This document shows, piece by piece, positions 6,956-43,691 of a DNA stretch of 64,000 bases. A model generated the notes under the pieces. That model searched no databases. It saw only the letters and a list, made by a program, of their open reading frames with translations, and was not told the origin of the DNA. The translations under genes and the position numbers were made by a program. Positions within the stretch are counted from its first letter, which is position 1. Each line of letters opens with the position of its first letter. The stretch covers positions 50,056 through 114,055 of the forward strand of contig JBKAGT010000006.1 of the NCBI GenBank assembly GCA_046290495.1, in the 5' to 3' direction. This stretch comes from Chlorobiota bacterium (GTDB lineage Bacteria; Bacteroidota; Ignavibacteria; Kapaibacteriales; UBA2268).

Positions 6956-7627
6956 ATGGCTGTACTCAAATCAGAAAAAGTCAATAAATATTTCCACAAG
7001 CCAGTAGAATTCCATGTTCTTCGAGATATATCACTTGAAATAGACCATGGTGAATTTGTTTCAATAATGGGCAAATCAGGATGTGGTAAATCAACTTTGC
7101 TGTACATACTGTCAACGATGGACACCGATTATACAGGTGAGTTGTATCTCTCTGGCGAGAGAATAACAGGCAAAAAACAAAGAGAATTAGCTACACTAAG
7201 AAGCAAACACATAGGATTTGTATTCCAGTTTCATTACTTATTGCCAGAGTTTACAGTGCTCGAGAATGTAATGCTCCCAGCTAAGAAATTAGCCCTGAAA
7301 AGCGACAAAGAGATAGAACGAGATGCCATGGAGAAGCTAGAGTTGCTAGGTATAGAGGGGCAAGCAAAAAAGAAAGCTAGCATGATATCTGGTGGACAAA
7401 AACAGAGAGTCTCTATTGCAAGGGCATTAATCAATGATCCAGATATAATAATGGGTGATGAACCAACAGGAAATTTGGATAGTAAAAACTCTGAGAATGT
7501 ATTCAATATATTTAAAGACCTTAGTCATGAAAAAAATATGTCTTTACTAGTTGTTACTCATGACAAGGATTTTGCTGATAAGACTGATAGGATTATCGAG
7601 ATGGAAGACGGGGTAATTATAAGTTGA
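6956..7627 (+). CDS. ABC transporter ATP-binding protein (LolD/MacB-type ATPase)
   Basis: Walker A GKSGCGKST, ABC signature LSGGQKQRVSIARAL, Walker B IIMGDEPTGNLD. Confidence 0.9.
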   Translation: MAVLKSEKVNKYFHKPVEFHVLRDISLEIDHGEFVSIMGKSGCGKSTLLYILSTMDTDYTGELYLSGERITGKKQRELATLRSKHIGFVFQFHYLLPEFTVLENVMLPAKKLALKSDKEIERDAMEKLELLGIEGQAKKKASMISGGQKQRVSIARALINDPDIIMGDEPTGNLDSKNSENVFNIFKDLSHEKNMSLLVVTHDKDFADKTDRIIEMEDGVIIS

Positions 7628-7719
7628 GTCTTTTATGATAATCTATTCATTTTAGTCCAATATTTCTTAAATTGGTAGTCAGCATTATATCAGAAAAAGA
7701 TTAAGTATTTAGCTAAATT

Positions 7720-9828: not shown

Positions 9829-9831
9829 TTG

Positions 9832-22565: not shown

Positions 22566-23618
22566 TTACTTTTTAATAAACTTAATGAATTCATCATCTA
22601 TATTGAGAACATAACAACCACTAACAAGGTTTTTTATATCTAACTTATAGTCAGAATTAGGGATATTACTTAATTCTTTAACCAAGTCTCCAGATAGGTT
22701 GTAAAGCTTTATGCTATAGGGTAATTTATTGCTATTAACAATTAAGTATTCTTCAGCTGGGTTTGGGTAAACAATAAAAGAAGCTGACTTAGTATTTTCT
22801 ACTGATGAAATAGGTTCTAATTTGGTTTTGGAAATAACACCAGTATTATACTCACTTACATACATATCATCACCATTTATAATAAATCTAGTAGGCCCAC
22901 TATATGAATCAGTAAAGAATTCTGGGTAAGGGTTTGAATCAGTTAAGTCTAATTTAAATATTAACCCACTATTTGTATTACAGACATATAAATAATTTTC
23001 TCTTATTCTGACCCCATAAACACCTCCTAAGTCAGTTGCTAAGTCTTCAATAATGGGATTTTCTATAGTAATGTCAATTTTCGATATTTTTTTTGCTCCA
23101 TATTCACAAATAAATAAATCATCACCATCTATTGCTAATCCCTCTGGTTCATCGAGACCATAGACAACATCTGATAATACTGGATTCTCTTCGGTAATAT
23201 TTATTTTAGAAATTTTTCCTGCCCTGAATTCACTAATAAATAAATAATTTCCACTATGTGCTAATCCTGAAGGCCCATTTAATCCAGAAACAACTTCAAT
23301 TGAAACAGGGTTATTTGCTGTAATGTCAACCTTAGAAATTCTACCAGCAAAAAATTCAGAAATATAAAGATAATTTCCAATTAGAATTATCCCGCTAGGT
23401 GAATTCAATTCAGAAACAACTTCAATTGGGGTAGGTTCAACCTCAGTAATTTCAATTTTTGATAACTTCTTAGCATCACTTTCAACAAAGTATAAAAAAT
23501 CACCATCGATAGCTAACCCATAGGGTCCCTTCAGAAATTTTAAGATATCTGTTGTTTGAGGTAAAATTACTGTAAAGCTACAGATAAAGATAACAGTAAA
23601 GATTATAAATTTTCTCAT
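22566..23618 (-). CDS. secreted six-bladed beta-propeller protein with T9SS C-terminal sorting domain
   Basis: 350 aa. Signal peptide. About 6 repeats of about 43 aa (..GLA.DGD.LY..E....KISKI.IT..NP..). C-terminus VYPNPAEEYLIV...LYNLSGDLVKEL...LDIKNLVSGCYVLNIDDEFIKFIKK. Confidence 0.8.
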   Translation of the reverse strand: MRKFIIFTVIFICSFTVILPQTTDILKFLKGPYGLAIDGDFLYFVESDAKKLSKIEITEVEPTPIEVVSELNSPSGIILIGNYLYISEFFAGRISKVDITANNPVSIEVVSGLNGPSGLAHSGNYLFISEFRAGKISKINITEENPVLSDVVYGLDEPEGLAIDGDDLFICEYGAKKISKIDITIENPIIEDLATDLGGVYGVRIRENYLYVCNTNSGLIFKLDLTDSNPYPEFFTDSYSGPTRFIINGDDMYVSEYNTGVISKTKLEPISSVENTKSASFIVYPNPAEEYLIVNSNKLPYSIKLYNLSGDLVKELSNIPNSDYKLDIKNLVSGCYVLNIDDEFIKFIKK

Positions 23619-24632: not shown

Positions 24633-24752
24633 GTGTGAGCTGTTTAAATAATTGAATTAAACTAAGTTAAAAAAAAACAACTATTTGCCAAACTTTAATG
24701 ATCAAAAAAAATAAATTTCGGTATTCAAAGTCTTTTATTATATTTGAATATT

Positions 24753-25073
24753 ATGAAAACGATAGCAATCATATTACTAATTCTTGTAAACACCTTTGTG
24801 GCGTTTCCTTGCACCGACGACCATTCGTCTGAACAGGAACACCAAAGTGAGTTAGTAGAAGTTGATTGTTCTGAATTACATACCGAATTCAACGAAAATG
24901 AGGCAGAAACCTGCACTCCTTTTTGTGTATGTAGCTGCTGCCACACTCAGATAGTAGAACTAAGTAAGCAAAACTGTTGCAAGCCAATCGTATACAAACC
25001 AGACTATACTGAAAGACATTTCAATACTTTAGATTATTACAAACAACCAGACCCCTCTCCTCCAAAGGTATAA
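24753..25073 (+). CDS. small Cys-rich secreted protein preceding the heavy-metal RND pump
   Basis: ORF-track start 24744 is TTG; the first ATG is 24753 (MKTIAIILLILVNTFVAFPC). The mature part contains CTPFCVCSCCHTQ and NCCKP clusters (9 Cys in about 85 aa). Confidence 0.6.
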   Translation: MKTIAIILLILVNTFVAFPCTDDHSSEQEHQSELVEVDCSELHTEFNENEAETCTPFCVCSCCHTQIVELSKQNCCKPIVYKPDYTERHFNTLDYYKQPDPSPPKV

Positions 25074-25144: not shown

Positions 25145-28100
25145 ATGATTAATAGAATAATCGATTTCTCTGTTGAGAATCGTGTAGCTATTGGTGCACT
25201 TACTGTGTTGCTAATAGTAGCTGGTATATGGAGTATGAACAAAGTACCCATAGATGCAGTGCCGGATATAACCAACAACCAAGTTCAGATTATCACCCAA
25301 GCTCCAAATTTAGCGACAGTGGATATAGAGCAATTCGTTACTTACCCCGTGGAGTTAGAAATGTCTAACCTGCCAGGTGTTACCGAAATTCGCTCAGTTT
25401 CCAGATTTGGACTGTCAGTTGTTACGGTTGTGTTCGAAGATGATATGGGTACATATTTGCCCCGTCAGTTAGTTCAAGAAAAATTAGAAAAAGTAAGAGA
25501 TAAGATTCCAGAGCAATTTGGCTCGCCAGATATGGGACCAATTAGTACGGGACTAGGGGAAATATACCAATATAGTTTAGAGGTTGATAGTTCCATGAAA
25601 GGCAAGTACTCGCTAGCTGACTTGAGGAGTTTCCAAGACTGGATAGTGAACAGACAAATGGCTATGGTACCAGGAGTTGTTGAGGTAAATAGTTTTGGAG
25701 GTAAGATAAAGCAATATGAGATTGCAATAGAGCCAGAGAAGCTAAAAGCTATGAATCTTACCATTTCCGATGTATTTGATGCACTAAAGAGGAATAATGA
25801 GAATACAGGTGGTGCTTACATTGTCAAAAACCATTTGGCTAATTATATCCGTGGCGAAGGACTTATCAGAAACACCAAAGATATTGAGCGTATAAAGGTA
25901 GCCACCAAGGAAGGAATTCCGATTATGGTCGGTGATATTGCCATTGTCCAAATAGGTAGTGCAGTTCGCTATGGTGCATTCACAAGAAATGGTGAAGGTG
26001 AAGCAGTTGGTGGTATGGTTATGCTTCTTAAGGGGGCAAACTCCAATGAAGTAATTACAGCCGTAAAAGAAAGAGTAGAACAAATTCAATCATCACTTCC
26101 GAAAGGTATTAGGATTGTTCCATTTTTAGATAGAAGTGAATTAATTAGTGATACTACTAGCACTGTAGCTACTAACTTGATAGAAGGTGGGCTAATAGTG
26201 ATTTTCGTTCTAGTTATCTTCTTGGGTAACTGGCGTGGTGGATTAATAGTAGCTTCTACTATCCTGTTATCGCTGCTTTTTGCATTCATTATGATGTATG
26301 CCTTTGATGTCTGGGCAAACTTAATGAGTTTAGGCGCTATTGACTTCGGTATCATTGTTGATGGTGCAGTGATAATCGTTGAAGGTACGGTATTCGGCAT
26401 TACTCAAAAATTGAAAAAATCAGGCGAGAATATTGGTAAAGATGATATTAAAAATATAGCTAAGAGTTCATCTAAAAAAATGATGAATTCGGCATTCTTT
26501 GGTCAGCTTATTATTCTGATTGTATTTATTCCAATTCTCACTCTAGAGGGTATAGAGGGAAAGATGTTCAAACCGATGGCATTAACATTTGGTTTTGCTA
26601 TGTTGGGTGCTATGTTGCTATGTCTGACTTATGTTCCTATGATGTCAGCGACATTTTTAAAGAGTACGAACAAGGTTAGCATTGGTGATAAGATAGTACA
26701 TTTCCTTGAAAGATTGTACACCAAAGCATTGAGTTTTGTGATTCGCTTCTCTAAAAGCTTTATCATAACTTTAGGTGCATTACTTGGGTTTACAATTTAT
26801 CTGTTCACTAATTTGGGTGGTGAGTTTATTCCTCAGCTTGATGAGGGGGACATTGCTTTTCATATTATGCTGAAGCCTGGCTCCTCGATAGAGGAGTCAG
26901 TTAAAGCCGCAACAGAAGTAGAGAAATTAATAATGACCGAATTCCCAGAAATTGAACAAGCAATGTCAAAATTTGGTGTTTCAGAAGTTCCTACAGACCC
27001 AATGCCAATGGACATTGGTGATTGTATAGTAAAGCTAAAACCTAAAGATGAATGGTCTTCAGCGAGTACTAAAGATGAGTTGATTGCTAAAATGAAGAAA
27101 GTTCTACAAACTATACCAGGTTTGAACTATGAATTTTCTCAGCCAATTGAAATGAGATTCAATGAACTTATATCAGGTGTAAGACAAGACATAGCAATCA
27201 AAATATTTGGCGAAGATTTGGATTTATTGGCAGAGAAAGCTGAAGAAGTGCAGTCACTTTTAGCTGGTATTCAAGGAATAGGTGATATGTCTGTAGAAGC
27301 AACTTCAGGTCTATCACAGATTACAGTTGATTACGATAGAGCTAAATTAGCTCAATACGATATTGATATTTCAGAAGCAAACGAATTACTCAAAACTGCT
27401 TTTGCAGGTGGCAAAGCAGGTGTTATATTCGAAGGGGAAAAACGCTTCGATATGGTAGTTCGGCTGAATAGCGATAATAGAAAAAGCATAGAAGATATAA
27501 AGTATTTATATATAAATACACCTGAAGGGACACAGTTGCCACTTAGTGAAGTTGCTAACGTGCAATATGTGGAAGGCCCTATGCAAATTGGCCGCGACAA
27601 CACTAACAGGAGGGTTTACGTTGGAATAAACGTAAGAGACAGGGACATAGAAACCCTGATGGAAGAGATAAAAGCTAAGCTTAGCTCTGAGTTAGAATTG
27701 CCTGCTGGTTATTACATTACTTATGGTGGTGCTTTCGAGAATTTGGAAAGGGCTATGAGCAAGCTAACTGTTGTTATACCTCTTGTACTATTGCTTATAT
27801 TTATATTGATATACTTTGCATTGAAGTCATTCAAATATACTTCGCTTATCTTTTTAGCAATACCGTTTGCTACTATTGGAGGAGTGTTGTCGCTATGGTT
27901 GAGGGGCTTACCATTTAGTATATCAGCGGGGGTTGGTTTTATAGTGCTTTTTGGTGTTGCCGTTCTCAACGGATTAGTTCTACTTAATGGACTGGAAGAA
28001 CTAAAAGAAGAGCTACCAAATGCAGATATGGATGAGAGAATAAAAAAAGGAACTGTAAGAAGAGTTCGACCGATATTACTAACTGCTCTTACTGATGTTC

Positions 28101-29485
28101 TCGGATTTTTCCCTATGGCAATTAGTATGTCCGCTGGTGCAGAAGTACAAAGACCCTTAGCCACAGTTGTTATCGGTGGACTTTTTACATCTACTTTACT
28201 TACACTTTTCTTATTACCAATACTATACAGATGGCTGGAGACTTATAAGATGAAAAGAATTCCTAATGTTGCTACGGCTATAATAGCTATTTTCATTGTA
28301 CTGATTGGTTCTAATGATAAAGCATTATCACAAGATAAAATAGAGTTAGAGCAGTATGAGCAGATAACATTGCAAGAAGCAACTGAGATAGCTAAGAAAA
28401 ATTACCCTCTGATGAAAATAAGTGATTTGAAGGTAGAAAAGGCTAATAAGCAGAAGAAAAAAGCGATAAACTTTGGAACTACGCAGATATTCACTGGAGC
28501 AGAGGAGAGAGGAAATGGGCTCGATGGAGTAGAGAGTGTTATTGGGGTTAGTCAGAACAACATAGATTTATTCGGTTCTTTTGCTCGAGGAGATTATTAC
28601 TCAAAGAATAGTGAATTAGCTGAAGCAAGCAGAGCATTGACTGAACTAGAGCTTGAGAAGTTAGTAGCTAAAAGATGGGTAAATTTAAACTATGCTAAGA
28701 GCAGATACTATTTCTTCTATTCTCTTGATTCGTTGTTGAGTGGAGTAAATAAATATAATAATTCAAGGTATGAAGCAGAGGCAATATCTGGATTGGAGTA
28801 TTCTGTAACTAAATCAAATTATATAGAAATAAGGAATAAGCTATCCCAATCAAAGGCAGATGTGTTGAGTGCTACTCATTTATTTAATCAACTATTATCC
28901 GATGAACAAACCTACACTACAACAGGGGATAAATTTGAATTAGAGGAGATGACCTCTAATATTAGCTTGGAGCAGCATCCAATGTTGCAGTATCAGCAAA
29001 AACAAGTTGAACTTAGTGAGTCGAATTTAGATATAAATTACAGCAAGCTATACCCAAAGATAAATGGTCAATATAGAGTGCAAAATATACAAGGTCAGTC
29101 AGGATTCTATGCATATCAATTTGGGATTTCTGTACCACTAATATTCAATTCTGTATCTGGAGATATAGGAGCAGCTGAACAAGAAGTTATGATAAGAAAA
29201 GAAATGTATGAAATGCAACGATTGGAGCTGGAAGCCAATTACAAAGCTCAACTCGCTGAGTATGAGAAGTGGCGTGATTCCTATGTGTTCTACCGCTCAG
29301 AGGTTATACCATTGGCAAAAGAAATAAAAGACAAGTCATACTTACGCTACAAAAGTGGCGAGATTGACTATATGGACTTTGTTCAAAGTATAGAGAAAGT
29401 AGTAAAAATGGAAGAAGAGTATTTGAAATCGATGAGCAAATACTTTGAAGCTTATGTCAATATGAAATATTATAATAGCAAATAA
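25145..29485 (+). CDS. CusA/CzcA-family heavy-metal efflux RND permease fused in frame to a TolC-like outer membrane factor domain
   Basis: 1446 aa. Residues about 1-1035 are CzcA-like (12 TM helices, two large periplasmic loops, ending ..LLPILYRWLE). The frame continues with no stop into MKRIPNVATAIIAIFIVLIGSNDKALSQ (signal-peptide-like), then about 400 aa with OMF character (..ITLQEATEIAKKNYPLMK.. and coiled-coil-rich repeats). Confidence 0.85.
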   Translation: MINRIIDFSVENRVAIGALTVLLIVAGIWSMNKVPIDAVPDITNNQVQIITQAPNLATVDIEQFVTYPVELEMSNLPGVTEIRSVSRFGLSVVTVVFEDDMGTYLPRQLVQEKLEKVRDKIPEQFGSPDMGPISTGLGEIYQYSLEVDSSMKGKYSLADLRSFQDWIVNRQMAMVPGVVEVNSFGGKIKQYEIAIEPEKLKAMNLTISDVFDALKRNNENTGGAYIVKNHLANYIRGEGLIRNTKDIERIKVATKEGIPIMVGDIAIVQIGSAVRYGAFTRNGEGEAVGGMVMLLKGANSNEVITAVKERVEQIQSSLPKGIRIVPFLDRSELISDTTSTVATNLIEGGLIVIFVLVIFLGNWRGGLIVASTILLSLLFAFIMMYAFDVWANLMSLGAIDFGIIVDGAVIIVEGTVFGITQKLKKSGENIGKDDIKNIAKSSSKKMMNSAFFGQLIILIVFIPILTLEGIEGKMFKPMALTFGFAMLGAMLLCLTYVPMMSATFLKSTNKVSIGDKIVHFLERLYTKALSFVIRFSKSFIITLGALLGFTIYLFTNLGGEFIPQLDEGDIAFHIMLKPGSSIEESVKAATEVEKLIMTEFPEIEQAMSKFGVSEVPTDPMPMDIGDCIVKLKPKDEWSSASTKDELIAKMKKVLQTIPGLNYEFSQPIEMRFNELISGVRQDIAIKIFGEDLDLLAEKAEEVQSLLAGIQGIGDMSVEATSGLSQITVDYDRAKLAQYDIDISEANELLKTAFAGGKAGVIFEGEKRFDMVVRLNSDNRKSIEDIKYLYINTPEGTQLPLSEVANVQYVEGPMQIGRDNTNRRVYVGINVRDRDIETLMEEIKAKLSSELELPAGYYITYGGAFENLERAMSKLTVVIPLVLLLIFILIYFALKSFKYTSLIFLAIPFATIGGVLSLWLRGLPFSISAGVGFIVLFGVAVLNGLVLLNGLEELKEELPNADMDERIKKGTVRRVRPILLTALTDVLGFFPMAISMSAGAEVQRPLATVVIGGLFTSTLLTLFLLPILYRWLETYKMKRIPNVATAIIAIFIVLIGSNDKALSQDKIELEQYEQITLQEATEIAKKNYPLMKISDLKVEKANKQKKKAINFGTTQIFTGAEERGNGLDGVESVIGVSQNNIDLFGSFARGDYYSKNSELAEASRALTELELEKLVAKRWVNLNYAKSRYYFFYSLDSLLSGVNKYNNSRYEAEAISGLEYSVTKSNYIEIRNKLSQSKADVLSATHLFNQLLSDEQTYTTTGDKFELEEMTSNISLEQHPMLQYQQKQVELSESNLDINYSKLYPKINGQYRVQNIQGQSGFYAYQFGISVPLIFNSVSGDIGAAEQEVMIRKEMYEMQRLELEANYKAQLAEYEKWRDSYVFYRSEVIPLAKEIKDKSYLRYKSGEIDYMDFVQSIEKVVKMEEEYLKSMSKYFEAYVNMKYYNSK

Positions 29486-30729
29486 TGAGAATAGAAATGA
29501 AATTAATAATAACAATACTAATATCGATATTTATGATTGCCTGTGGTAATGATGCAGGTCATAATCATGAAGAAGAGCATGGACATGATGAACATAATGC
29601 TCATGAAAGTGAAAGTGGTCATGATGACCATGGTGAGCATGAAGACCACGATGAGCATGGTGAAGAAGGAGTGGTAGAAATAAATACAGATGTATATAAA
29701 ACTATGGGAATAGTTTTGGATAGCTTAGCTACCAGGAATATGAGTGAAGCTGTCTATGCAACTGGTCACTTGAAAGTACCACCAAACAACGAAGCTACAG
29801 TAACGGCTATGGTAGGTGCTAATATCAAGTCAATTAGAGTGATAGAAGGCGATAAGGTTCGCAAAGGCCAAACATTACTTACTATGGAGCATCCTAACTT
29901 AATTGAAATGCAAACTGAATATGTAGAATTGTCAAGCCAATTAGAATATCTAAAAAATGAATACGAAAGAGAGGAGAAGCTCTATAATTCTGATGCTAGT
30001 TCTGGAAAATCATTTCAGAAAGCTAAATCGGAATATCTTACAACAAAGGCAAGATACTACGGACAATTGAAAAAGTTGAGAATGCTAAATATAGATACCG
30101 ATAAGGTATTGGATGGTGAGTTTTCCGATGTTATTTCTATCCGAAGTCCTATCGGTGGGTTCGTTAATAAAATATTAGCTAAGACTGGACAGTATATAAA
30201 TCCCAATGATGAGATAATACATATAGTAGATAACCATCATGTGCATGTTCATTTTATGGTGTTTGAAAAAGATGCTATAAAGATAAAGAAAGGGCAACAA
30301 GTAAGATTCACTACAGATTATGTGGAGGGCAAAGAGTTTGAGGCAGAAGTATATTCTGTGGGAAAAAGCTTTGAAGAAGATCCAAAAGCAGTGCATATTC
30401 ATGCAGAAATGTCAGACAATAAGTATGATTTGATTCCAGGTCTTTATGTAAAAGGTCAAATCTTAATTGATGAGCATAATGTAAAGGCACTACCAGAATC
30501 AGCTATAGTGAGTGACAAGGGTAAAGACTATATCTTTGTTTACTCAGGTAGTGATGAGGAGCATACTAAGTTTGAGTTGGTAGAAATTAAGACTGGGTTG
30601 AGAAAGGATGACTGGGTAGAAGTTAAGGCAATTCTGAGCGATGAAGACATAGATAAAATAGTATATAACAAAGCATACACTTTACAATCCGAAAAAGATA
30701 AAGGAGCTGGTGGTCACCATCACCACTAA
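29485..30729 (+). CDS. RND efflux periplasmic adaptor (CzcB/CusB-like) with His-rich metal-binding termini
   Basis: TAATG overlap with the upstream gene. Lipobox MIAC. N-terminal HNHEEEHGHDEHNAHESESGHDDHGEHEDHDEHGEEG, C-terminal GAGGHHHH. Beta-barrel and lipoyl-like adaptor core. Confidence 0.85.
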   Translation: MRIEMKLIITILISIFMIACGNDAGHNHEEEHGHDEHNAHESESGHDDHGEHEDHDEHGEEGVVEINTDVYKTMGIVLDSLATRNMSEAVYATGHLKVPPNNEATVTAMVGANIKSIRVIEGDKVRKGQTLLTMEHPNLIEMQTEYVELSSQLEYLKNEYEREEKLYNSDASSGKSFQKAKSEYLTTKARYYGQLKKLRMLNIDTDKVLDGEFSDVISIRSPIGGFVNKILAKTGQYINPNDEIIHIVDNHHVHVHFMVFEKDAIKIKKGQQVRFTTDYVEGKEFEAEVYSVGKSFEEDPKAVHIHAEMSDNKYDLIPGLYVKGQILIDEHNVKALPESAIVSDKGKDYIFVYSGSDEEHTKFELVEIKTGLRKDDWVEVKAILSDEDIDKIVYNKAYTLQSEKDKGAGGHHHH

Positions 30730-30797: not shown

Positions 30798-32321
30798 TTA
30801 TTCTGTGTTTTCTTCAGCTTCAGTAGTTACTAACTTTGATTGTACTTTGTTGTTAACTGGTATAGAGAATGCGAATGTAGAACCTTCATTCTTTTTGCTC
30901 TTTACCCAGACATACCCGTCATGAGCTTCTACCATTTTCTTTACAATCCAAAGTCCCAAACCAGTTGCAGACTCACCGCCAGTTGGCTTGCTACTCAGAG
31001 TTGCACCTTTTTGGAATGTACGCTTAATATCCTCTTCTGAAAGGCCTTGACCCGTATCGCTAACACTGAATATCACATGTTTTTTATCTTTATCATAGTC
31101 AGTTTCTACTAACACTGAACCACCCTTTTCAGTGTATTTGATAGCATTTGAAATTAGGTTATCCATTACTTCATCTATTCTCAGGACATCTAAGTTTATT
31201 TCTGGCAAATCTTCGCCTAGTACTGATTCGTAAGTAAGTTTCTTGTTTCTAGCATTGAAAGTATTTCTCATGAATACGTCTTGTGCTATATCATTCATAT
31301 CTACTAAGTCATATTCCAAATTGAGCCCAGTGCCTTCTAGAGCCATAATTTTACTTATTTCAGAAGAAAGCTTCAGTATTCTGCTAGAGCTTTCTGCAAT
31401 ATCTTTCATTATATCATCGAAGTCATTGGCAGTACTGTCATAGTTGGTTAGTAGGTCAACTAACCCTTTAATTACTGATGCTGGATTTTTAATGTCATGT
31501 ACTATAACTGAGAATAACTCTTCTTTTTGTTTTTGAAGGTCTTCTAGTTCTTTCTTTGATTTATCAGTTTTATTCACTGTTTCTTGTAGTTCTTTGTTCT
31601 GAACCATTAGCTTTCTACTTTGCGATTGCATTTTATCTATCTGCAGTCTCAGAGCTTTTATTTCTTTTCGCAGGTCAGCATTTTCCTGCTCTATTGTTTT
31701 TTCTTCAGCACTCATGTTGCCCTCTGTTTGCTTACTTTTTAATTTATTTTTATTTCTTGGTCTGTTTTTTAAATAGATTAAAACGAAAATTGCGATAAGT
31801 GATATCAACACTATTAAAGCAATGTCAGCTAAATAAGAGACAAAGCCATTTTCATTTTCTAATTCATCTAACTTCTTCTGTAAATCTTGATTTAAAGATT
31901 CTTGATTTTCTATTTTAGTTATTAGTTTAGCTAACTCATTATCTACTATGAAACTAATCTCATCATCTTTTGCTACCCATGTGCCATCTTCACTTAGTGC
32001 ACTTATTTTAAATGTGTACTCTGCTTCCGGTAGATTAGCGTATCTAACTACTAAATTATCTACTAAATTGACAGAAGTATCTTGATTCATTATCAACATA
32101 GTTCTGTATCTGACAGTCTTTGTTTCTACTTTTGGTGATACAGTATATTCGAACACAATAGAATCTGAATCAGATATTACTATCTTATCCTTGAAAGTAA
32201 TCTGTGCAGGTTCGCCATTTACTTGCGCGTAATCAATTGTAGCTTTATAATCTTGAGCAAGCAATGCATTGCTACCAAAAATCAAAAACAATACGATGAA
32301 TAAATTAATTATTCTATTCAT
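30798..32321 (-). CDS. sensor histidine kinase (periplasmic Y_Y_Y-like domain, single TM, HisKA+HATPase_c); no response regulator nearby
   Basis: H-box FSVIVHDIKNPASVI; N, G1 and G2 boxes (NLISNAIKYTEKGG; DTGQGLSEED; GLGLWIVKKM). Start taken at the internal ATG (MNRIINLFIVLF.. signal peptide). The ORF-track start 32381 would overlap the upstream gene by 68 nt. Confidence 0.8.
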   Translation of the reverse strand: MNRIINLFIVLFLIFGSNALLAQDYKATIDYAQVNGEPAQITFKDKIVISDSDSIVFEYTVSPKVETKTVRYRTMLIMNQDTSVNLVDNLVVRYANLPEAEYTFKISALSEDGTWVAKDDEISFIVDNELAKLITKIENQESLNQDLQKKLDELENENGFVSYLADIALIVLISLIAIFVLIYLKNRPRNKNKLKSKQTEGNMSAEEKTIEQENADLRKEIKALRLQIDKMQSQSRKLMVQNKELQETVNKTDKSKKELEDLQKQKEELFSVIVHDIKNPASVIKGLVDLLTNYDSTANDFDDIMKDIAESSSRILKLSSEISKIMALEGTGLNLEYDLVDMNDIAQDVFMRNTFNARNKKLTYESVLGEDLPEINLDVLRIDEVMDNLISNAIKYTEKGGSVLVETDYDKDKKHVIFSVSDTGQGLSEEDIKRTFQKGATLSSKPTGGESATGLGLWIVKKMVEAHDGYVWVKSKKNEGSTFAFSIPVNNKVQSKLVTTEAEENTE

Positions 32322-33033
32322 ATTTGTAGGCATTTTTAGCATTGACTGTTGCTCTATTTCTTTTTTTAAATGAGTTTTCATTTATCTTCTTTTCTAATAT
32401 TCTCTTTACATCGAAAAAAGTTTTAAAATTATAATGTGGTAAACTATTCTCGTTGCAATGTGTAGCTAAGTACTTCTTAGCAAAAATTATATCGCAATGT
32501 TCGGCGGCACAAAAATCAGAATATCCATCTCCAATATATATTTTGAGAGAACTCTCTGTACTTGTGTTTAGAACAAAATTTCTTTTGCAATTGGCCGAAT
32601 AGCAATTGCATGATTCTGATGCAAAAGTATATTCGGGCTGCAAATGACTTTCTTTTTCAATTAACTTATTACTGACAACAGGTAGATCCAGTCCATTTTG
32701 TTCTAGAATCTGATTAATGTAAAAGTCGAAACCGTCACTTACTACATATAAATCCAATTTGTTGTCTTTGCAGTACTCAACAAAGCTTACAAAATACGGG
32801 TCAATATCAAATGCTTTTGCCTGTTCTCGTAAGTCACTTAGAGTAGTGCTATTAGGTAAACTCTTACAAAGTTTGTGCCAATATTTATATATGCTTAGTT
32901 TGCCTTCACGAAACTCTTGGTTTAGCTCTTCAAAGTGTCCTACTCTTTCGAACAACTTGTTCCCAACATCTTTGAGAGTTATTGTGCCATCGAAATCACA
33001 AAATACCTTAACATCTGTATATTTAATAGACAT
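32314..33033 (-). CDS. HAD-family phosphatase, MtnX-like (2-hydroxy-3-keto-5-methylthiopentenyl-1-phosphate phosphatase family)
   Basis: 239 aa. FCDFDGTIT, DGFDFYINQILE, Cys cluster SCNCYSANCKRN, IYIGDGYSDFCAAEHCDIIFAKKYL. These align along the full length with B. subtilis MtnX as recalled from memory. Confidence 0.65.
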   Translation of the reverse strand: MSIKYTDVKVFCDFDGTITLKDVGNKLFERVGHFEELNQEFREGKLSIYKYWHKLCKSLPNSTTLSDLREQAKAFDIDPYFVSFVEYCKDNKLDLYVVSDGFDFYINQILEQNGLDLPVVSNKLIEKESHLQPEYTFASESCNCYSANCKRNFVLNTSTESSLKIYIGDGYSDFCAAEHCDIIFAKKYLATHCNENSLPHYNFKTFFDVKRILEKKINENSFKKRNRATVNAKNAYKYE

Positions 33034-35925: not shown

Positions 35926-38900
35926 ATGAAACAATCGTTTACTAAATTGGCATTTATGCTACTTTTAGCTTTAACTATGGCACTTCCAAGCACTTTGTTT
36001 AGTGGTGTAGATGAAGCTGAAATGACTGAAAAGCTACCTGCTTTACTTGGTCAAGACAATATGGGGCGTGAATTTTGGTTCGCGATTCCACCAGTATATG
36101 AAGAAGTAGCTGGTGATAACTTCGTTAGAGTCTTAGTGACAAGTGATGTAGAGACAGATGTTGTCATTCAAGTAGAAGGTAAAGGGGTTTATAAGAAAAA
36201 AACTACAATCCCAAATAGTGTAATTGACTTTGAATTGAATCCTGCACAAGCACAACCGATTCCACATAGATTGGGTACTCATATTTCACCACCAGCAAAA
36301 ATATATAAAGGTGCAGGTGTACAAGTATCAGCAGACCAACCAATCGTTGTTTATGTAGTAATCAAATACAAATATACTTCAGATGGTTTCCTAGCTCTTC
36401 CTGTTTCTGGATTAGGTGATAGATACATCAATATGGTTTACCAAGATCCAGCTTTGGGTGGTGCTAATAGCCACGCACCAGCATTCACTTGTGTTACGGG
36501 TGTTTATGACAATACTCAAGTCAATATGACTATGGGTGGTGGCCCTATGGGTAGTGATAAAATGAAGTTAGATGGTGGTAGAGAATTAGCAACTGGTGAC
36601 CAAACATCATTCTTCTTAGATAGAGGTGATGTATGGATGGGTGCTTCTAGTGGCCATTTTCAAGATATTTCTGGTTCATTGTTCGAAGGTACGAAGCCAT
36701 TCGCAATAGTTTCTGGTATGCACTGTGCTAACTTCCCGGTTGGGAATGCTTGGTGTGATTATACAGTAGAAATGGAATTACCAACTTATGCTTGGGGTAA
36801 ACAATACTATATTACTCCTATGGAAGGTAGAACTTATAATGGTATAATCAGAATTTATGCCGCAGAAGACAATACTACAATTTATAGAAATGGTCAAGTA
36901 ATGGGTTTACTTACTCATGGTGGTGGTAATACGATAGGTAAAGCTTATATGGAGATGAGAGTCTGGCCAAAACTTGATGACTTCGGCCAAGCAATAAGAC
37001 CAAAAATTGCTACTATCCATGCTGACAAACCAATTGCAGTGATGTATTATAATACTGGTACACAAGAAGATGTTGGTACTGCAGATAGTGATCCATTCCA
37101 ATTATTCTTTACTCCTATTGAGCAATTCCAAACGGAAATATTATTCCCTTCACCTAATGCATTAGGTGGGACAGATTTTTATACTAAGAATTATGTGAAC
37201 ATTGTTTATGAAATGCACGAGGATTTCATACCTCAAGATTTAATGTTTGCTAAAATGGAAGTTGGAAGAGATCCGGACTGGAAACCAGTTTCTCAAGTAG
37301 TGGCTGGTGCTCCTAGAGTATTTACTGAAAAATACCAAGGAAAGGAATTTGGTACTTCTACTCTATCCTTACCTACAGAAGGTGTGTTTTCACTAAGGTC
37401 AGACTCAACTAAATTTGTTGCGTATTCTTATGGGTTTGCTTCATACGAGTCTTACGGTTTCCCTACTTCTGCTGCACTTCGTGATTTATCTTCACCTGAC
37501 ACGAACGCTCCAGTTCCTAATTACGTTCAAGAATGTAATGGTGATGTACTAAAAGACATGGGTACAGTAACTGATATGCCAGAAGATGATGAAGTAAGAT
37601 CAAATATGGCAGATTTATACCTAATAGAAAACTTAAATGATAATTATGTACTAGACTATAGAATACCGGGAACTAACAATAAAGATTTCATTCCTGGTGA
37701 GCAAAGAACATTATCATGGTGGTTAACTGTAGTTGACAAAACTCAGCCTGCAAGAGCTACTATAGCTTTCTTAGATAGAGCTGGTAATGACACTACTATT
37801 ACGATTAGCTACGATCCACCTGAGTTTGAAGTAGTAAGCGGTAATGCATTTGGTGTTATGGCTGCTTCTGATGCTCCTGTGGTAATGCAAGATACAATAA
37901 GAAACTTATCTACTACAGTACCTCAGTATATAACTAAGGTTGAGTTGCAAGATGGTGGTCAAGGATTTAGTATAGCTAGTTTTGAACCTGCTGGTTGGAC
38001 GCCGCCAATGGAAATTGGTCCAGGTGAAGAAGTTATTGTAAATATAGAGTTTGATCCAGCGGCTGCTGCTGCTAGTGGAGAAAAAGCAATTTACATAGAC
38101 TCGCTTGGTGTAGGTTATGGAGATGAGGATTTCAATGAGTGTGGATTTGCTTACTTCACTGAACAATCTGGTTCTCTGGGAGTTCCAGTAATCGAAGTAA
38201 CTGATTGGGACTTCGGCACAAGAAATATAAACGAAGTAACTCCTGACACTAGAATTATGACTATAACCAACACTGGTGATGAGATGCTAAGAATTACAGG
38301 TATCTCACAAGATTTACCTGCTGGTTCTATGTTCACTCATAACTTCATGACTTTATTCCCTGATGTATCTGTTGATACACCTTTAGAAATTGCACCAGGT
38401 GACTTAGTAGAGTTTCAAGTAGGATTTATGCCTACAGCTGTTGGAACTTATGCTGAAAACATTGTATTTGATAATAATACTAAAGATGGTAATACTACAG
38501 ATCATATCTGTGAATTGAAAGGTGTTGGTACTGATGCCCCTGTTTCTGCTGATGGTTATGTATGGCAAGGTGTTTTAATTAATAGACCTGCTACATTCCC
38601 TGCTGGACCTTATGATGTTGATGTAGATAGTCAACATGATGGATTCATAGTAAAGAATCTTGGTGATGCTGATGGAGACATAGCGCAAGTTGTTTCTATA
38701 AATATTGTTAGCGAAACTCCAAATGCAAGAGAATACTTCAGAACGAAGAACGGTGACGAAAATATCGTTGACTTCTTAAATAATAGTATTAGAGGACTAA
38801 ACTTAGCTGGAGATGTTACTAGAGAAGAAGCTATAGTCTTTAATCCTACTGAAAAAGGTCTTCACAGAATTGAGTTTGAATTAGTATTCAATGAAGAAAC

Positions 38901-40521
38901 TGGTAATGCAACATTACCTGTAGTTTATGAAGGTATTGGTGAAGCACCAAATGTCGAGGTAACAAATGTAACATTTGCACCTATGTTAGTTAACGATGAA
39001 GCTAATGCTCAAACTACTGGTGTGATGACAATTACTAATACTGATGATGAATATGGTCATCCTCTGAATATAACTGGAATTTCATTCGATAATGCTATTG
39101 TTAGCGATGATATTGCTGATTTCCAAGGACTAACATTCAGATATGATGGTAATTTATATCAAGACTTAGTAGATGGTAATATTATTCTGAATAAAGGTCA
39201 AAGTTTAAACATCCCAGTACATTTCGTAGCAAGACAAGTAGGAAATAATTCTGTAGTTGCAACGATTGAGTCGAATGCATACGTAGATGGTCCTGATTAC
39301 GATAATGATTCTGATTGGAATGGTGTAGGTACAGATCTAATTGTAAATATTAGTTCTCCTTATACTCTATTATGTCTAAATGAAACTGAATTTATTAATA
39401 TTACATTATCAAATCCTGGAACTGATAACCCAGTAACCATAAATGAGTTATCATTATCTGATTATGATTTAGACGGAGACGGTGTTGATGACTTATTCAT
39501 TACTTCTCCAACAACTAACGTAACAGTACCAGTGAATGGTGATGTCAATGTAGTTGTAGAATACACTCCTACTGGTTTAATCAACAGACAGTTTGTAGAG
39601 CTTATTATCGATCATGATTATGGTAATAATTTGGCAATCAATGGTGCAGATGAAGCATTAGAAGTTGAATCAGAATTCTTCGTTGGTAATACTCAGACAA
39701 ATGTAACTGGTGCTAGCAGTAGTAATCCTACAAATCCTGATTATGATACAGAGTATATGGTGTCAATTGGCGATGAATTCGAATATCAAATTGGATTAAC
39801 TGGTAACGCATCAGGAACTGATGCACAGACAATTACTGTAAATATTAATTATAATAGTTTGTTTACATCACCTTTGATTGAAGAAGGTAACAATATGCCT
39901 AATATTACTAGTGAAGCTAGTGCAGAAGTACAACCGGGATCTTATTCCGTAGCTCCTGATGCGAACGGCCCTAAAGGTAGTATGGTTATGACATTTACTC
40001 TACAAAGCACAGATGGTAGTTCTATATTTGCTAACAATAATATAATTGCTAGTGTTCCATTCAGAGTTGTACTTCCTGCAGTAAATGAGGAAGGTGCTCT
40101 AGGTGAAATTGGACAAGATGACGATTCTTATGGAAGATTCGATATGAGTCATACTCTAACTGATTTACCAACTTGTTATGCACACACTGAAGACGATGTG
40201 TTATTAGCAATCGAAGAGATTTGTGTTGGTGATTACAGAGCACTTTATGTTAGTGACTTTAACTTCGGTGAACCAAATGTAACTCCTAACCCTGCAAGTT
40301 CTGCAGCGACTATAGAGTACACGGTGCCTTATGATATGCCTGGTGAGATTATATTGTATAACTCAGCTATGCAACAAGTTAAGACACTTTACAGTGGTGA
40401 GATGAAAGAAGGTGTTAGAACAGCTGATGTTCCTGTTAGTGAACTTTCAAATGGTACTTACTTCTTCACTGTTAAGATTGGTGAAAAACAACAAATGGGT
40501 AGAATAGTTATTGAGAAATAA
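35926..40521 (+). CDS. giant secreted surface/adhesin-like protein with IgGFc-binding-N-terminal-like domain and T9SS C-terminal sorting domain
   Basis: 1531 aa. Signal peptide. N-terminal region (..GREFWFAIPPVYEE..VLVTSDVETDVVIQV..) paralogous to the N-terminus of 56254..58617. Long beta-rich middle. C-terminus VTPNPASSAATIEYTVPYDMPGEIILYNSAMQQVKTLYSGEM...GTYFFTVKIGEKQQMGRIVIEK. Confidence 0.8.
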   Translation: MKQSFTKLAFMLLLALTMALPSTLFSGVDEAEMTEKLPALLGQDNMGREFWFAIPPVYEEVAGDNFVRVLVTSDVETDVVIQVEGKGVYKKKTTIPNSVIDFELNPAQAQPIPHRLGTHISPPAKIYKGAGVQVSADQPIVVYVVIKYKYTSDGFLALPVSGLGDRYINMVYQDPALGGANSHAPAFTCVTGVYDNTQVNMTMGGGPMGSDKMKLDGGRELATGDQTSFFLDRGDVWMGASSGHFQDISGSLFEGTKPFAIVSGMHCANFPVGNAWCDYTVEMELPTYAWGKQYYITPMEGRTYNGIIRIYAAEDNTTIYRNGQVMGLLTHGGGNTIGKAYMEMRVWPKLDDFGQAIRPKIATIHADKPIAVMYYNTGTQEDVGTADSDPFQLFFTPIEQFQTEILFPSPNALGGTDFYTKNYVNIVYEMHEDFIPQDLMFAKMEVGRDPDWKPVSQVVAGAPRVFTEKYQGKEFGTSTLSLPTEGVFSLRSDSTKFVAYSYGFASYESYGFPTSAALRDLSSPDTNAPVPNYVQECNGDVLKDMGTVTDMPEDDEVRSNMADLYLIENLNDNYVLDYRIPGTNNKDFIPGEQRTLSWWLTVVDKTQPARATIAFLDRAGNDTTITISYDPPEFEVVSGNAFGVMAASDAPVVMQDTIRNLSTTVPQYITKVELQDGGQGFSIASFEPAGWTPPMEIGPGEEVIVNIEFDPAAAAASGEKAIYIDSLGVGYGDEDFNECGFAYFTEQSGSLGVPVIEVTDWDFGTRNINEVTPDTRIMTITNTGDEMLRITGISQDLPAGSMFTHNFMTLFPDVSVDTPLEIAPGDLVEFQVGFMPTAVGTYAENIVFDNNTKDGNTTDHICELKGVGTDAPVSADGYVWQGVLINRPATFPAGPYDVDVDSQHDGFIVKNLGDADGDIAQVVSINIVSETPNAREYFRTKNGDENIVDFLNNSIRGLNLAGDVTREEAIVFNPTEKGLHRIEFELVFNEETGNATLPVVYEGIGEAPNVEVTNVTFAPMLVNDEANAQTTGVMTITNTDDEYGHPLNITGISFDNAIVSDDIADFQGLTFRYDGNLYQDLVDGNIILNKGQSLNIPVHFVARQVGNNSVVATIESNAYVDGPDYDNDSDWNGVGTDLIVNISSPYTLLCLNETEFINITLSNPGTDNPVTINELSLSDYDLDGDGVDDLFITSPTTNVTVPVNGDVNVVVEYTPTGLINRQFVELIIDHDYGNNLAINGADEALEVESEFFVGNTQTNVTGASSSNPTNPDYDTEYMVSIGDEFEYQIGLTGNASGTDAQTITVNINYNSLFTSPLIEEGNNMPNITSEASAEVQPGSYSVAPDANGPKGSMVMTFTLQSTDGSSIFANNNIIASVPFRVVLPAVNEEGALGEIGQDDDSYGRFDMSHTLTDLPTCYAHTEDDVLLAIEEICVGDYRALYVSDFNFGEPNVTPNPASSAATIEYTVPYDMPGEIILYNSAMQQVKTLYSGEMKEGVRTADVPVSELSNGTYFFTVKIGEKQQMGRIVIEK

Positions 40522-41369: not shown

Positions 41370-43691
41370 ATGAAACAGTTAATAAAAGTCTTATTTCTAC
41401 TCTTTTCTGTTAGTTTCCTTTATTCTCAACCGGATAATTTTACCTCAAATTATGACAAGTATAATTGCTTTGCATTCGATGACGACAACTACTATGTGGG
41501 TCTAGTCAATGGCTTTGTAGTGCAAGATAGGGAAACGGGGGAATATAAATATTACTCTACACTCAACTCGGATATGAAAGGTAATAATGTGAGTGATATT
41601 GATGTGTATAAAGGTAAGGTGTATTTTACTTCTAATAGGGGTGTCTATAGTTACAGTAATAGCATTGTAGAAAGTCTGGGTTATGATTCTTTATTTTTTT
41701 CAGGCATACAAAAAGATGAAGAAGGTTACCTCTGGTTTTACAGTAATGATTTAATATTTGGTTTTGATGGCAGTTATTTCAAGTATTTCGACCTCTCATT
41801 ACATACGTCTAGGTATGCTGAATTAAATAAAATATATACTCATGAAGAGTATTTGTGGCTTTCTTTTAAAACTTATAATAATAAGTATTCTTATGTCTTG
41901 ATAAATGTAAATGAAGATACTCTAAAAGCATTTGAACCAGTGGAGATTGGATTTGAAGATAATTATACGAAACTTATTGCTTTTTCAAATGGAAAAGCTT
42001 GGCTCAAATCTACAAGCAACGAAGTTTTTAATTATACTTTTTCCTCAAGTGAATGGAGCGAAGAAAATACTAAGTTTATCACTCCTTATGGCTATCAAAT
42101 AGTACCATATATAATTACAAACCAAAAGGGGAAGATGTGGTTTATAATGTTCGATAAAGTTGGTGAAGGAGTACGGAAAGTAGCCACTTTTGAGAATGAT
42201 CAATATGTCGTTGAAACAAAATTTGAGGAGTTAGCTGCTAATAATGGCAAAACCTGGAATAGGTTATACAAATTTGATGACGAATTAATACTATCAACTG
42301 TATCGGGTGAGTATTACAGAATAGAAGATGAAATTCTTGAGTTAATTGCTGAAGCAGATACAAATGCTAAATTAACACAAGAAACTAATTTTTATAAAAA
42401 TGAGGATGAATTATTTAGATTAGCTAGAGTAACTAGAAACGAGACTTCTGCATTTGAAATTATTGATATAGAAAACAATAAAATAGACGAATTTAGAATT
42501 ACAAATAAGACTTATTTTCCATACCTTACATTAGGTAGTTACTATAAGATAGATGGAATGGAGTTTATTTCAAGGTATTATAACAATATATCCCGTGTCA
42601 ATAAAGATGGCATTTGGAATGGGGTTTCAACAATAGGTGTTGTAAATGATGATGGGGTCGTTGTTAAGAAAGATGTAAAGGGGGACTACTATTTTTACGA
42701 TGATTATCTATACAAATACAAAAATGGCAATGCTGAAAAGCTTTTCCGTTTTTCTCCTGAATATTTAAGAGGTATAGAAATTCATAATAACAACTCTTAT
42801 TTTTATTATTCCTATAAAATAGGTAATCATTATGTTGAGTTTAATCTAAATAGGAAGTTCGGAGTTAGGGTTGGGGCGTATGATCCAAAAGGAGAAAAGA
42901 TAAATGAAATATCTGATGAGGATGATTGCATAAACAATTGGTATGAGTATGGGAAATACTCAACATATTATTATGGGTCAGTACCTTCAGATATTAAAAT
43001 AGACAATAATAGTAATATATGGCTTTTAACATGGACTTCTCTCTATTATTTGGAAGAAAATAGCAACTGTACTTATTTTAAGTTTGAAAGTGATGAAGAT
43101 GATGAAGCAATAAAGCCAAACCAAATTGCTTATTCGAGATATCAAGGAAAGATGTATGGTAAAAGAGACAATTTGGTTTATAGCTTTAATGAAAGTGACT
43201 TTAAGACTGCTGACTCTAAAGATATGGTTGACGGGGAACTAAACTTTATCGGTGAATGTAACGATGGTTTGGTTTATGTAGCTACAACTGATGGTCGTCT
43301 GTTTAGACTAAATACTATAGATAGTTGGGAGAAAATACCCTTGGTAGAAGGGAAAGAAAGCATTCACGCTAATATTCGTAATGTATTTAGAAGTGAAGAT
43401 ACCCTGTATGTATCTACAGAAATTGGTTTAATCAAAGTTCATCAGAAGATTACATCGTTTGCAGAAGGAACGACTAAAGTTGACGATATTAATGTATATC
43501 CAAACCCTGTTGGAAGTGAGCTAACTGTAGTTGGCTATGAAGGCAAGGCCACGATTTTTAATTCTTATGGTACTGAAATTAAAAACATTGAGATTGATAA
43601 TAGCAATATTGACGTAAGTGGTTTAGTGCCTGGAATATATTTCATTTCAGATATTTATGGGAAGCAAATAGCTAAATTTGTTAAGGAATAG
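41370..43691 (+). CDS. secreted beta-propeller-repeat protein with T9SS C-terminal sorting domain
   Basis: 773 aa. Signal peptide. Reg_prop/Y_Y_Y-like repeats in the N-terminal region. C-terminus INVYPNPVGSELTVVGYEGKATIFNSYGTEIKNIEI...GLVPGIYFISDIYGKQIAKFVKE. Confidence 0.75.
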   Translation: MKQLIKVLFLLFSVSFLYSQPDNFTSNYDKYNCFAFDDDNYYVGLVNGFVVQDRETGEYKYYSTLNSDMKGNNVSDIDVYKGKVYFTSNRGVYSYSNSIVESLGYDSLFFSGIQKDEEGYLWFYSNDLIFGFDGSYFKYFDLSLHTSRYAELNKIYTHEEYLWLSFKTYNNKYSYVLINVNEDTLKAFEPVEIGFEDNYTKLIAFSNGKAWLKSTSNEVFNYTFSSSEWSEENTKFITPYGYQIVPYIITNQKGKMWFIMFDKVGEGVRKVATFENDQYVVETKFEELAANNGKTWNRLYKFDDELILSTVSGEYYRIEDEILELIAEADTNAKLTQETNFYKNEDELFRLARVTRNETSAFEIIDIENNKIDEFRITNKTYFPYLTLGSYYKIDGMEFISRYYNNISRVNKDGIWNGVSTIGVVNDDGVVVKKDVKGDYYFYDDYLYKYKNGNAEKLFRFSPEYLRGIEIHNNNSYFYYSYKIGNHYVEFNLNRKFGVRVGAYDPKGEKINEISDEDDCINNWYEYGKYSTYYYGSVPSDIKIDNNSNIWLLTWTSLYYLEENSNCTYFKFESDEDDEAIKPNQIAYSRYQGKMYGKRDNLVYSFNESDFKTADSKDMVDGELNFIGECNDGLVYVATTDGRLFRLNTIDSWEKIPLVEGKESIHANIRNVFRSEDTLYVSTEIGLIKVHQKITSFAEGTTKVDDINVYPNPVGSELTVVGYEGKATIFNSYGTEIKNIEIDNSNIDVSGLVPGIYFISDIYGKQIAKFVKE

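Follow-up and report, generated by a model that had tools for sequence, protein, structure and literature searches.

A heavy-metal efflux operon of the resistance–nodulation–division (RND) class is encoded by two genes in the 64,000-nucleotide stretch of contig JBKAGT010000006.1 analyzed here (hereafter the window), from the Chlorobiota bacterium assembly GCA_046290495.1. The functions of RND permease, periplasmic adaptor of the membrane fusion protein (MFP) type and outer-membrane factor (OMF) are encoded together, but in two open reading frames (ORFs) rather than three cistrons: an in-frame permease–OMF fusion is followed by a separate adaptor gene, czcB. Judged by its conserved pattern, the junction between the two fused parts is the OMF's own signal peptide, retained inside the fused ORF. 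We consider it probable that signal peptidase I cuts this chain after S1062, which would yield, in a 1:1 ratio, a free OMF and a pump extended by one C-terminal helix.

A complete permease and a complete channel in one frame

The preliminary description of this DNA reported a single CzcA–OMF ORF of 1446 amino acids without an intervening stop, and the ORF listing, Pfam and TIGR00914 all bear this out. The operon and the predicted parts of the fused product are as follows.

25145..29485, + strand: fused czcA-OMF ORF, 1446 codons plus a TAA stop, with an ATG start and no internal stop in the ORF listing
25145..28234, + strand: RND permease part, residues 1-1030 (CusA/CzcA, heavy-metal efflux or HME-RND family), matched by ACR_tran and TIGR00914 and ending with the motif ...LLPILYRW of transmembrane helix 12 (TM12)
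28235..28330, + strand: junction, residues 1031-1062, a predicted internal type-I signal peptide with the n-, h- and c-region (n-h-c) layout
28328..28333, + strand: predicted signal peptidase I site between S1062 and Q1063 (codons TCA and CAA), a small residue preceding the cut and Gln following it
28331..29482, + strand: predicted mature OMF, Q1063-K1446, 384 amino acids, of TolC/CusC/CzcC type, from Pfam OEP, AlphaFold2 (AF2) and Foldseek
29485 (TAATG overlap) or 29497 to 30729, + strand: czcB-like periplasmic adaptor (MFP), matched by HlyD_D23 and TIGR01730 RND_mfp

Both parts are complete, comprising a full RND permease and a full OMF of the TolC/CusC type. Pfam ACR_tran covers residues 5-1031 (E 5e-275) and profile positions 1-1020 of 1021, and the NCBIfam model for CusA/CzcA heavy-metal RND permeases, TIGR00914, matches residues 1-1034 with 1166 bits, where its curated cut-off is 701 bits. 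The domain order first described for this ORF therefore stands, whereas the permease end that had been placed at about residue 1035 does not, as the conserved end is W1030/E1032. The DNA runs through this boundary as ...TGG CTG GAG ACT TAT AAG ATG AAA AGA..., with no in-frame stop. The fourth transmembrane helix (TM4) of the permease is AIDFGIIVDGAVIIVE, in which D400, D406 and E413 are invariant among 29 sequences; the acidic proton/cation relay motif in TM4 of HME-RND permeases is D-x5-D-x6-E, or 'DFG..DGA..VE'. In the window the motif reads AIDFGIIVDGAVIIVEG, with Gly following the Glu, a position that in CzcA is presumably occupied by Asn. Transport of metal cations is hinted at indirectly, by the family, by the His-rich N-terminus of CzcB and by a neighboring Cys/His-rich DUF6660 protein.

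The remainder of the ORF matches Pfam OEP in two stretches, the last of which reaches residue 1443 (E 4e-28), and its sequence-profile matches in the PDB are to OprJ-like proteins and SilC. When the C-terminal 384 residues were modeled by AF2, as a monomer only, they yielded a mean predicted local distance difference test score (pLDDT) of 82.5 and a fold of four β-strands (82-91, 99-110, 275-285 and 288-299) with long helical hairpins, the helices spanning ~70 residues. Foldseek matched this model to CusC (3PIK), TOprJ1, SilC, OprM and TolC, each with a probability of 1.0 and a TM-score of ~0.7. At 35% G+C a stop codon is expected about every 14 codons by our own calculation, and here ~410 further open codons encode a confidently folding OMF; a chance origin of the long frame is therefore excluded.

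The operon comprises the same three components as CzcCBA of Cupriavidus metallidurans and CusCBA of E. coli, with a TIGR00914 permease bearing an acidic TM4, an MFP adaptor and an OMF of the CusC/TolC fold, and presumably it uses protons to drive the export of metal cations through both membranes. It differs from both in having two ORFs rather than three and in the gene order A-C-B rather than C-B-A. The OMF in the window also lacks a start codon of its own, its signal is exclusively internal, and unlike CusC and OprM it has no lipobox Cys. To our knowledge, all characterized tripartite RND pumps are built from a separately translated permease, adaptor and channel.

The junction as a predicted internal signal peptide

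The junction in the window begins with the n-region LETYKMKRIPN, continues with the hydrophobic core VATAIIAIFIVLIG and closes with SNDKALS as its c-region. Its Met is residue 1036 (28250-28252), the signal-like segment runs from M1036 to S1062, and Q1063 is encoded at 28331-28333; the predicted mature OMF would begin with this Gln, itself predicted to become pyroglutamate, followed by DKIELEQYEQITLQEATEIAK. We compared the junctions of 184 unique fused sequences, taking the conserved end of TM12 as anchor and locating the cleavage site by a simple rule. All 184 feature a basic n-region followed by a hydrophobic core, with a mean net charge of +3.3 and a mean Kyte–Doolittle hydropathy of 2.7 in the core, and in all 184 a small residue and then Gln follow the core, the small residue at -1 being Ala in 160. 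The signal-peptide-like character attributed to MKRIPNVATAIIAIFIVLIGSNDKALSQ in the preliminary description is right, and the n-h-c layout and the small/Gln pair are conserved throughout the set. As a control, a small residue followed by Gln was found after 10.8% of TM-like segments inside the permease, and the overall Gln frequency is 5%. The predicted +1 Gln is at least 90% conserved in the alignment of junction and OMF, and outside the small/Gln site the junction is poorly conserved in sequence and constant in form. A lipobox occurs in two of the 184 fused junctions. The same small/Gln pattern is found at the true N-termini of 48 of 50 stand-alone OMF relatives, and it is because these relatives carry it there that the junction is best read as a retained OMF signal peptide.

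In Bacteroidetes, signal peptidase I substrates expose a Gln at +1 that is cyclized to pyroglutamate, the so-called Q-rule, and the proteins concerned are periplasmic and outer-membrane proteins (Bochtler et al. 2018, PMC5837995; PMC10653852). The junction shares with these substrates the n-h-c layout, the small residue at -1 and the Gln at +1; it differs from them in lying ~1035 residues inside the chain, after 12 TM helices, and the Q-rule study (PMC5837995) took no account of internal sites. Among the window's own non-lipoprotein signal peptides, a small sample, Gln occupies +1 in ~5 of 12, against a background of 5%. A conserved +1 Gln is sensible only as a free N-terminus, and cleavage is therefore favored. 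The strongest argument for cleavage is the invariant small/Gln pair, which sits in a linker whose sequence otherwise drifts.

A 12-TM RND permease has both termini in the cytoplasm; a C-terminal extension could therefore reach the periplasm only via a segment oriented N-in/C-out, as a signal peptide is, and the basic n-region agrees with the positive-inside rule. We infer the membrane topology, the cleavage, the formation of pyroglutamate and the stoichiometric rationale of the following scheme. The ribosome would make a single chain of 1446 residues, whose 12 permease TM helices would insert so that the permease ends on the cytoplasmic side. There the basic tail would stay, while residues ~1036-1062 insert N-in/C-out as a 13th membrane span, which would thread the OMF part via Sec into the periplasm. 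Signal peptidase I would then cut after A-L-S1062, Gln1063 of the freed OMF would be cyclized to pyroglutamate, and the OMF would be delivered to the outer membrane and trimerize there, while the permease would retain the signal peptide as an added C-terminal helix. The outcome would be a conventional 3:6:3 pump, with permease and channel supplied in a forced 1:1 ratio in the same place, and with the adaptor, needed in larger amount, translated separately.

A precedent for this layout is the FbcH cytochrome b/c1 precursor of Bradyrhizobium japonicum, which is reported by Thöny-Meyer and colleagues (~1989-91) to be cleaved at its partner's internal signal peptide. In FbcH a polytopic inner-membrane protein that ends in the cytoplasm is reportedly followed by the signal peptide of its partner, so that two subunits of one complex result. 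In its sequence layout the fused ORF fits the FbcH type: a polytopic permease comes first, then a signal peptide, then a partner that belongs to the same complex and would be exported. The two cases differ in that both FbcH products reportedly stay at the inner membrane after a cleavage that is reported from experiment, whereas here the second product would proceed to the outer membrane and we infer the cleavage. We know of few documented bacterial examples of internally cleaved Sec substrates.

Several points weigh against cleavage at the junction. The 184 junction sequences are related, so that their count overstates the number of independent observations, and the site itself comes from a simple rule. 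In the junction the polar-free stretch has a median length of 17 (14% at 20 or more), between the 14 of stand-alone signal peptides and the 19 of permease TM helices; as this value is intermediate, length alone cannot separate a cleavable peptide from an anchor. No record of cleavage in experiments or proteomics was found, and the supplements of the Q-rule paper contain no CzcA entry. Structural modeling is equally reserved: AF2 predicts the junction helix at low confidence and without confident placement when modeled with the OMF, and when modeled with the permease (mean pLDDT 67.6) the helix falls below 50, which is uninformative on docking. Finally, in the window's clade Met1036 is conserved with a GGAG 9 nt 5' of it, and some internal initiation may occur there.

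This last point bears on a different reading, in which the frame is fused only incidentally and most of the OMF arises as a pre-protein of its own, translated from a start codon within the junction (here M1036); the operon would then work much as a split one does. We regard it as unlikely. The ATG of residue 1036 and its upstream GGAG are shared by the window and its closest relatives (96-84% identity), and an equivalent in-frame ATG is the OMF start in one operon where the two genes are split (L083, below). Over the whole set, however, the n-region is devoid of Met in 93 of the 184 fused sequences (any Met in 91), and only 27 of 69 loci offer an in-frame ATG there; internal initiation is therefore not a general mechanism. 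The GGAG is moreover a by-product of the conserved Trp-x-Glu codons. Internal initiation would leave unexplained why an upstream stop is absent from nearly all relatives, and the read-through product from the czcA start would still arise and still need processing. It would also yield an identical mature OMF.

It is quite unlikely, in our assessment, that the junction is instead a signal-anchor, a permanent 13th TM helix that leaves the OMF covalently attached, such that one polypeptide bridges both membranes. The continuity and conservation of the ORF are in keeping with such a tether, as is a junction core longer than that of stand-alone signal peptides, and uncleaved internal signal peptides do exist. 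The Streptomyces Rieske protein, for example, resembles the fused ORF in that an internal signal peptide exports the C-terminal domain of a polytopic protein; unlike the course proposed here, it uses the Tat pathway, is uncleaved, and its exported domain stays in the same protein (PMC13186574). Yet an invariant small (-1)/Gln (+1) site in a variable linker would have no rationale if the bond stays uncut, and the site has exactly the form seen where stand-alone relatives have their N-terminal signal peptides cleaved. The AF2 model places only ~19 residues between the hydrophobic core and the first ordered element of the OMF, a link that we estimate, from the published AcrAB-TolC and TolC architecture, to be too short to extend from the inner membrane to the OMF equatorial domain of an assembled pump. 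In split operons, moreover, each of these parts is a protein of its own. The consequences for tripartite assembly that the preliminary description saw in a fused RND–OMF protein are weakened accordingly, since the conserved cleavage site makes an ordinary pump and an ordinary channel the most likely products.

Fused and split operons across Bacteroidota

To establish how widely the fusion occurs, we searched a database of 5.8 billion proteins for homologs of the fused protein, and a set of species-representative genomes by tblastn with the full ORF; the figures below refer to the best 120 protein matches and the best 80 genome loci. Proteins of about 1440 amino acids and separate genes, the two outcomes between which the preliminary description left the choice for orthologs, both occur. 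The best 120 proteins are all 1422-1466 amino acids long, with 98-100% coverage and 57-96% identity, and the named isolates among them include Salegentibacter, Christiangramia, Cellulophaga, Tenacibaculum, Echinicola, Cecembia, Roseivirga and others; split operons also exist. The best 80 genome loci all align over ~residues 1-1443, and fall in Flavobacteriales, Cytophagales, Chitinophagales/Saprospiraceae, Sphingobacteriales, Bacteroidales (Prolixibacteraceae, Marinilabilia and one Prevotella metagenome-assembled genome, MAG) and Balneolales. As a check that tblastn had not bridged stops, the frames themselves were examined, and 79 of the 80 are uninterrupted over at least 1446 codons. The sole shorter frame (L074, match 4784-9108) comprises 1305 codons, though tblastn spans residues 1-1443, and may be a frameshifted or interrupted copy. 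An MFP gene lies 3' of the fused ORF in 76 of the 80 loci.

The fusion is also present in independent assemblies at 96%, 86% and 84% identity. Two of these relatives are independent metagenome contigs, of which the closer (L081, 96%) shares the window's synteny and the other (L082, 84%) has different flanks. Against L081, with a synonymous divergence (dS) of ~0.5, the ratio of non-synonymous to synonymous divergence (dN/dS) is 0.032 in the permease and 0.065 in the OMF, and the four replacements in the junction all exchange one hydrophobic residue for another. Both halves are under strong purifying selection. Plasmid-borne fused copies were found in Pontibacter, Adhaeribacter, Hymenobacter, Spirosoma linguale DSM 74, Runella, Chryseobacterium and others, each as a single annotated CusA/CzcA feature. 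Within the genome set the best identity to the fused gene is only 59%, and the window's lineage is thus poorly represented there.

These comparisons indicate that the fusion is ancient or recurrent, that it has been kept by selection and that it is the usual arrangement in Bacteroidota. The suggestion that the window's lineage encodes a genuine fusion consequently holds at the level of the gene, with an internal signal, and fails as to its restriction to this lineage. The alternative raised alongside it, that a stop codon was lost, is refuted as an accident of the lineage or an artefact by all 120 proteins, 79 of 80 loci, the several orders involved and the purifying selection. That the czcA stop was removed by a mistake in sequencing or assembly, or by recent mutation, leaving a meaningless long ORF, has next to no chance of being true, even though split relatives can differ by as little as one nucleotide (L083): the fusion recurs in independent Logan, JGI, ENA and NCBI assemblies, including complete genomes and plasmids, its frame is uninterrupted in nearly all of the best loci, and its OMF part is constrained.

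In NCBI, fused proteins bear the name 'CusA/CzcA family heavy metal efflux RND transporter' and nothing more. No description of a natural RND-OMF fusion was found in the open-access literature, a corpus that cannot prove novelty. The fusion is thus catalogued in databases under a generic name and is apparently uncharacterized, without being categorically new.

Some fused junctions are identical across genera. One group comprises Leeuwenhoekiella, Autumnicola, Christiangramia, Aequorivita, Zunongwangia and Mesonia (loci L024, L026, L028, L029, L070 and L080), and another Mesonia and Flagellimonas (loci L035-L038, L040 and L061). A MAG labeled as the alphaproteobacterium Parvularcula (L036) carries a fused junction identical to the Flagellimonas copies. 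Together with the plasmid copies, the identical junctions point to recent horizontal transfer or, for L036, to bin contamination.

Shorter proteins were also inspected. Those of ~500-1160 amino acids with an OMF from ~residue 390 were considered as MFP-OMF fusions and rejected, as Pfam identifies them as N-terminally truncated RND-OMF copies; P0121, P0127 and P0128 were likewise rejected as stand-alone OMFs, being fragments that start in or just after TM12. Three cluster representatives of the fusion, of 772-779 amino acids (P0130, P0135 and P0183), all start at ACR_tran profile position 660, which suggests that gene calls repeatedly start at one conserved internal Met and that the contigs were not truncated at random.

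Split operons of the order DUF6660-czcA-OMF-MFP were found in other Bacteroidota (L083, L084/L085, L086 and L088). They share gene order and families with the window, except that a stop or a 1-nt frame offset parts czcA from the OMF gene. Their CzcA is 61-65% and their OMF ~28-33% identical to the corresponding parts in the window, and their OMF signal peptides end with Ala before a +1 Gln. The boundaries between czcA and the OMF gene measure -11 (an overlap), +1, +24 and +39 nt, and the n-region of the fused junction has its counterpart in the tail of a split CzcA, '...PILYMWVESKKFKNSRNEK' followed by the stop. In L083 (4300-4345) a TGA stop occupies the conserved Trp (TGG) codon of the 'Y-x-W-x-E' motif and the boundary is otherwise unchanged; the ATG of the OMF lies in the same frame, 9 codons past the TGA, and if the TGA is read as Trp the result is a continuous protein of 1446 amino acids. 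This is the sole TGA stop among the contig's complete genes. Nonsense mutation, sequencing error and local recoding could each account for it and are indistinguishable from one TGA. From such boundaries, a single nucleotide appears to be enough to switch between the fused and split states, and the two forms probably interconvert by a change of stop codon or frame. In a crude neighbor-joining tree without support values, split operons fall at two separate positions among fused ones, a hint that the switch has happened more than once.

Neighboring genes and a second fusion

The TAATG junction between the fused ORF and czcB given in the preliminary description is real, at 29483-29487. The start of czcB at this overlap is uncertain: it may instead be the in-frame ATG at 29497, which is the start called in the 96%-identity relative L081. 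CzcB carries a lipoprotein signal (…IFMIAC) followed by a His-rich N-terminal run, GNDAGHNHEEEHGHDEHNAHESESGHDDH (29497..29640). On the other side of the fused ORF lies a small gene.

24744..25073, + strand: small DUF6660 protein, 5' of the fused ORF (Pfam DUF6660, E 4.7e-07), with a likely start at ATG 24753

The DUF6660 protein features a hydrophobic N-terminus followed by a stretch rich in Cys, His, Asp and Glu (…AFPCTDDHSSEQEHQSELVEVDCSELHTE…). A homolog lies immediately 5' of the fused gene in 13 of the best 80 loci, as well as in L081 and in the split operon L085; the DUF6660 protein is thus an occasional conserved partner of the operon, in its fused and split forms alike. By composition, both this protein and the N-terminal His-rich run of CzcB resemble metal-binding elements of the periplasm.

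Convergent to czcB is a gene for a histidine kinase with a Y_Y_Y domain (HisKA and HATPase_c; 30798..32381, - strand), which adjoins the operon in L081 but not in L082, the relative at 84%. The kinase gene has no response regulator gene next to it. A scan for promoters and terminators gave no enrichment, the σ70 consensus used being ill-suited to Bacteroidota.

The second fusion of the same kind that had been proposed for this window, involving tatD, is real. The ORF at 9829..11277 (+ strand) encodes a TatD_DNase domain (residues 3-254) with an extension of 228 amino acids, which features an internal signal peptide ending '...KKFFGIATLLIAMLAMSTTAYS' before a predicted mature start 'QDEE...', and then ~200 β-rich residues ending '...IFYPNF'. 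Full-length homologs of this fusion number 118, with lengths of 471-512 amino acids and identities down to 42%, and some have a Pfam match to OMP_b-brl. The small/Gln site is present in 115 of the 118 and a C-terminal Phe in 72, and the named homologs are Kapabacteria or Ignavibacteriae MAGs. Traced through tatD, the nearest named relatives of the window are Kapaibacteria-like Bacteroidota, and its lineage is probably of this kind. By these features, the extension looks like an outer-membrane β-barrel. Such a layout would keep the cytoplasmic nuclease anchored at the membrane.

Elsewhere in the window, cargo of type IX secretion with Por_Secre_tail C-terminal domains is numerous, and two very large proteins with IgGFc_binding domains (1531 and 787 amino acids) and two CarboxypepD_reg-TonB receptors are encoded. 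Genes of these three kinds lie at 1394..3469 (-), 22566..23618 (-), 35926..40521 (+), 41370..43691 (+) and 56254..58617 (-). This content fits an environmental Bacteroidota genome of ~35% G+C.

Two unrelated cases within 64 kb suggest that fusion proteins with internal signals form a broader class in Bacteroidota. We put forward tentatively, as an idea that may well prove too broad, that Bacteroidota routinely make two differently localized proteins from one ORF via internal cleavage by signal peptidase I at sites marked by the Q-rule. If this polyprotein strategy is true, it would fix the 1:1 ratio of the partners and couple their insertion in space and time, and the new C-terminal helix might serve the pump as an accessory helix or anchor TatD in the membrane.

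There are also practical consequences for annotation. Labels that read 'CusA/CzcA' only hide the outer-membrane component in gene inventories of Bacteroidota, plasmid metal-resistance loci included, and signal-peptide predictors that consider only the N-terminus will miss exported domains that are signaled internally. How RND pumps match their components and assemble is still debated, and a phylum-wide fusion maintained by selection offers a natural experiment on this question. If the chain is cleaved, permease and OMF would be produced co-translationally at 1:1, the permease would possess a 13th helix, and export of an outer-membrane protein would start from the C-terminus of a polytopic protein; if no cleavage occurs, the finding would be more surprising still. 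Overall, the fused arrangement is an ordinary one for Bacteroidota, and it raises a testable question about internal signal-peptide cleavage and the assembly of tripartite pumps.

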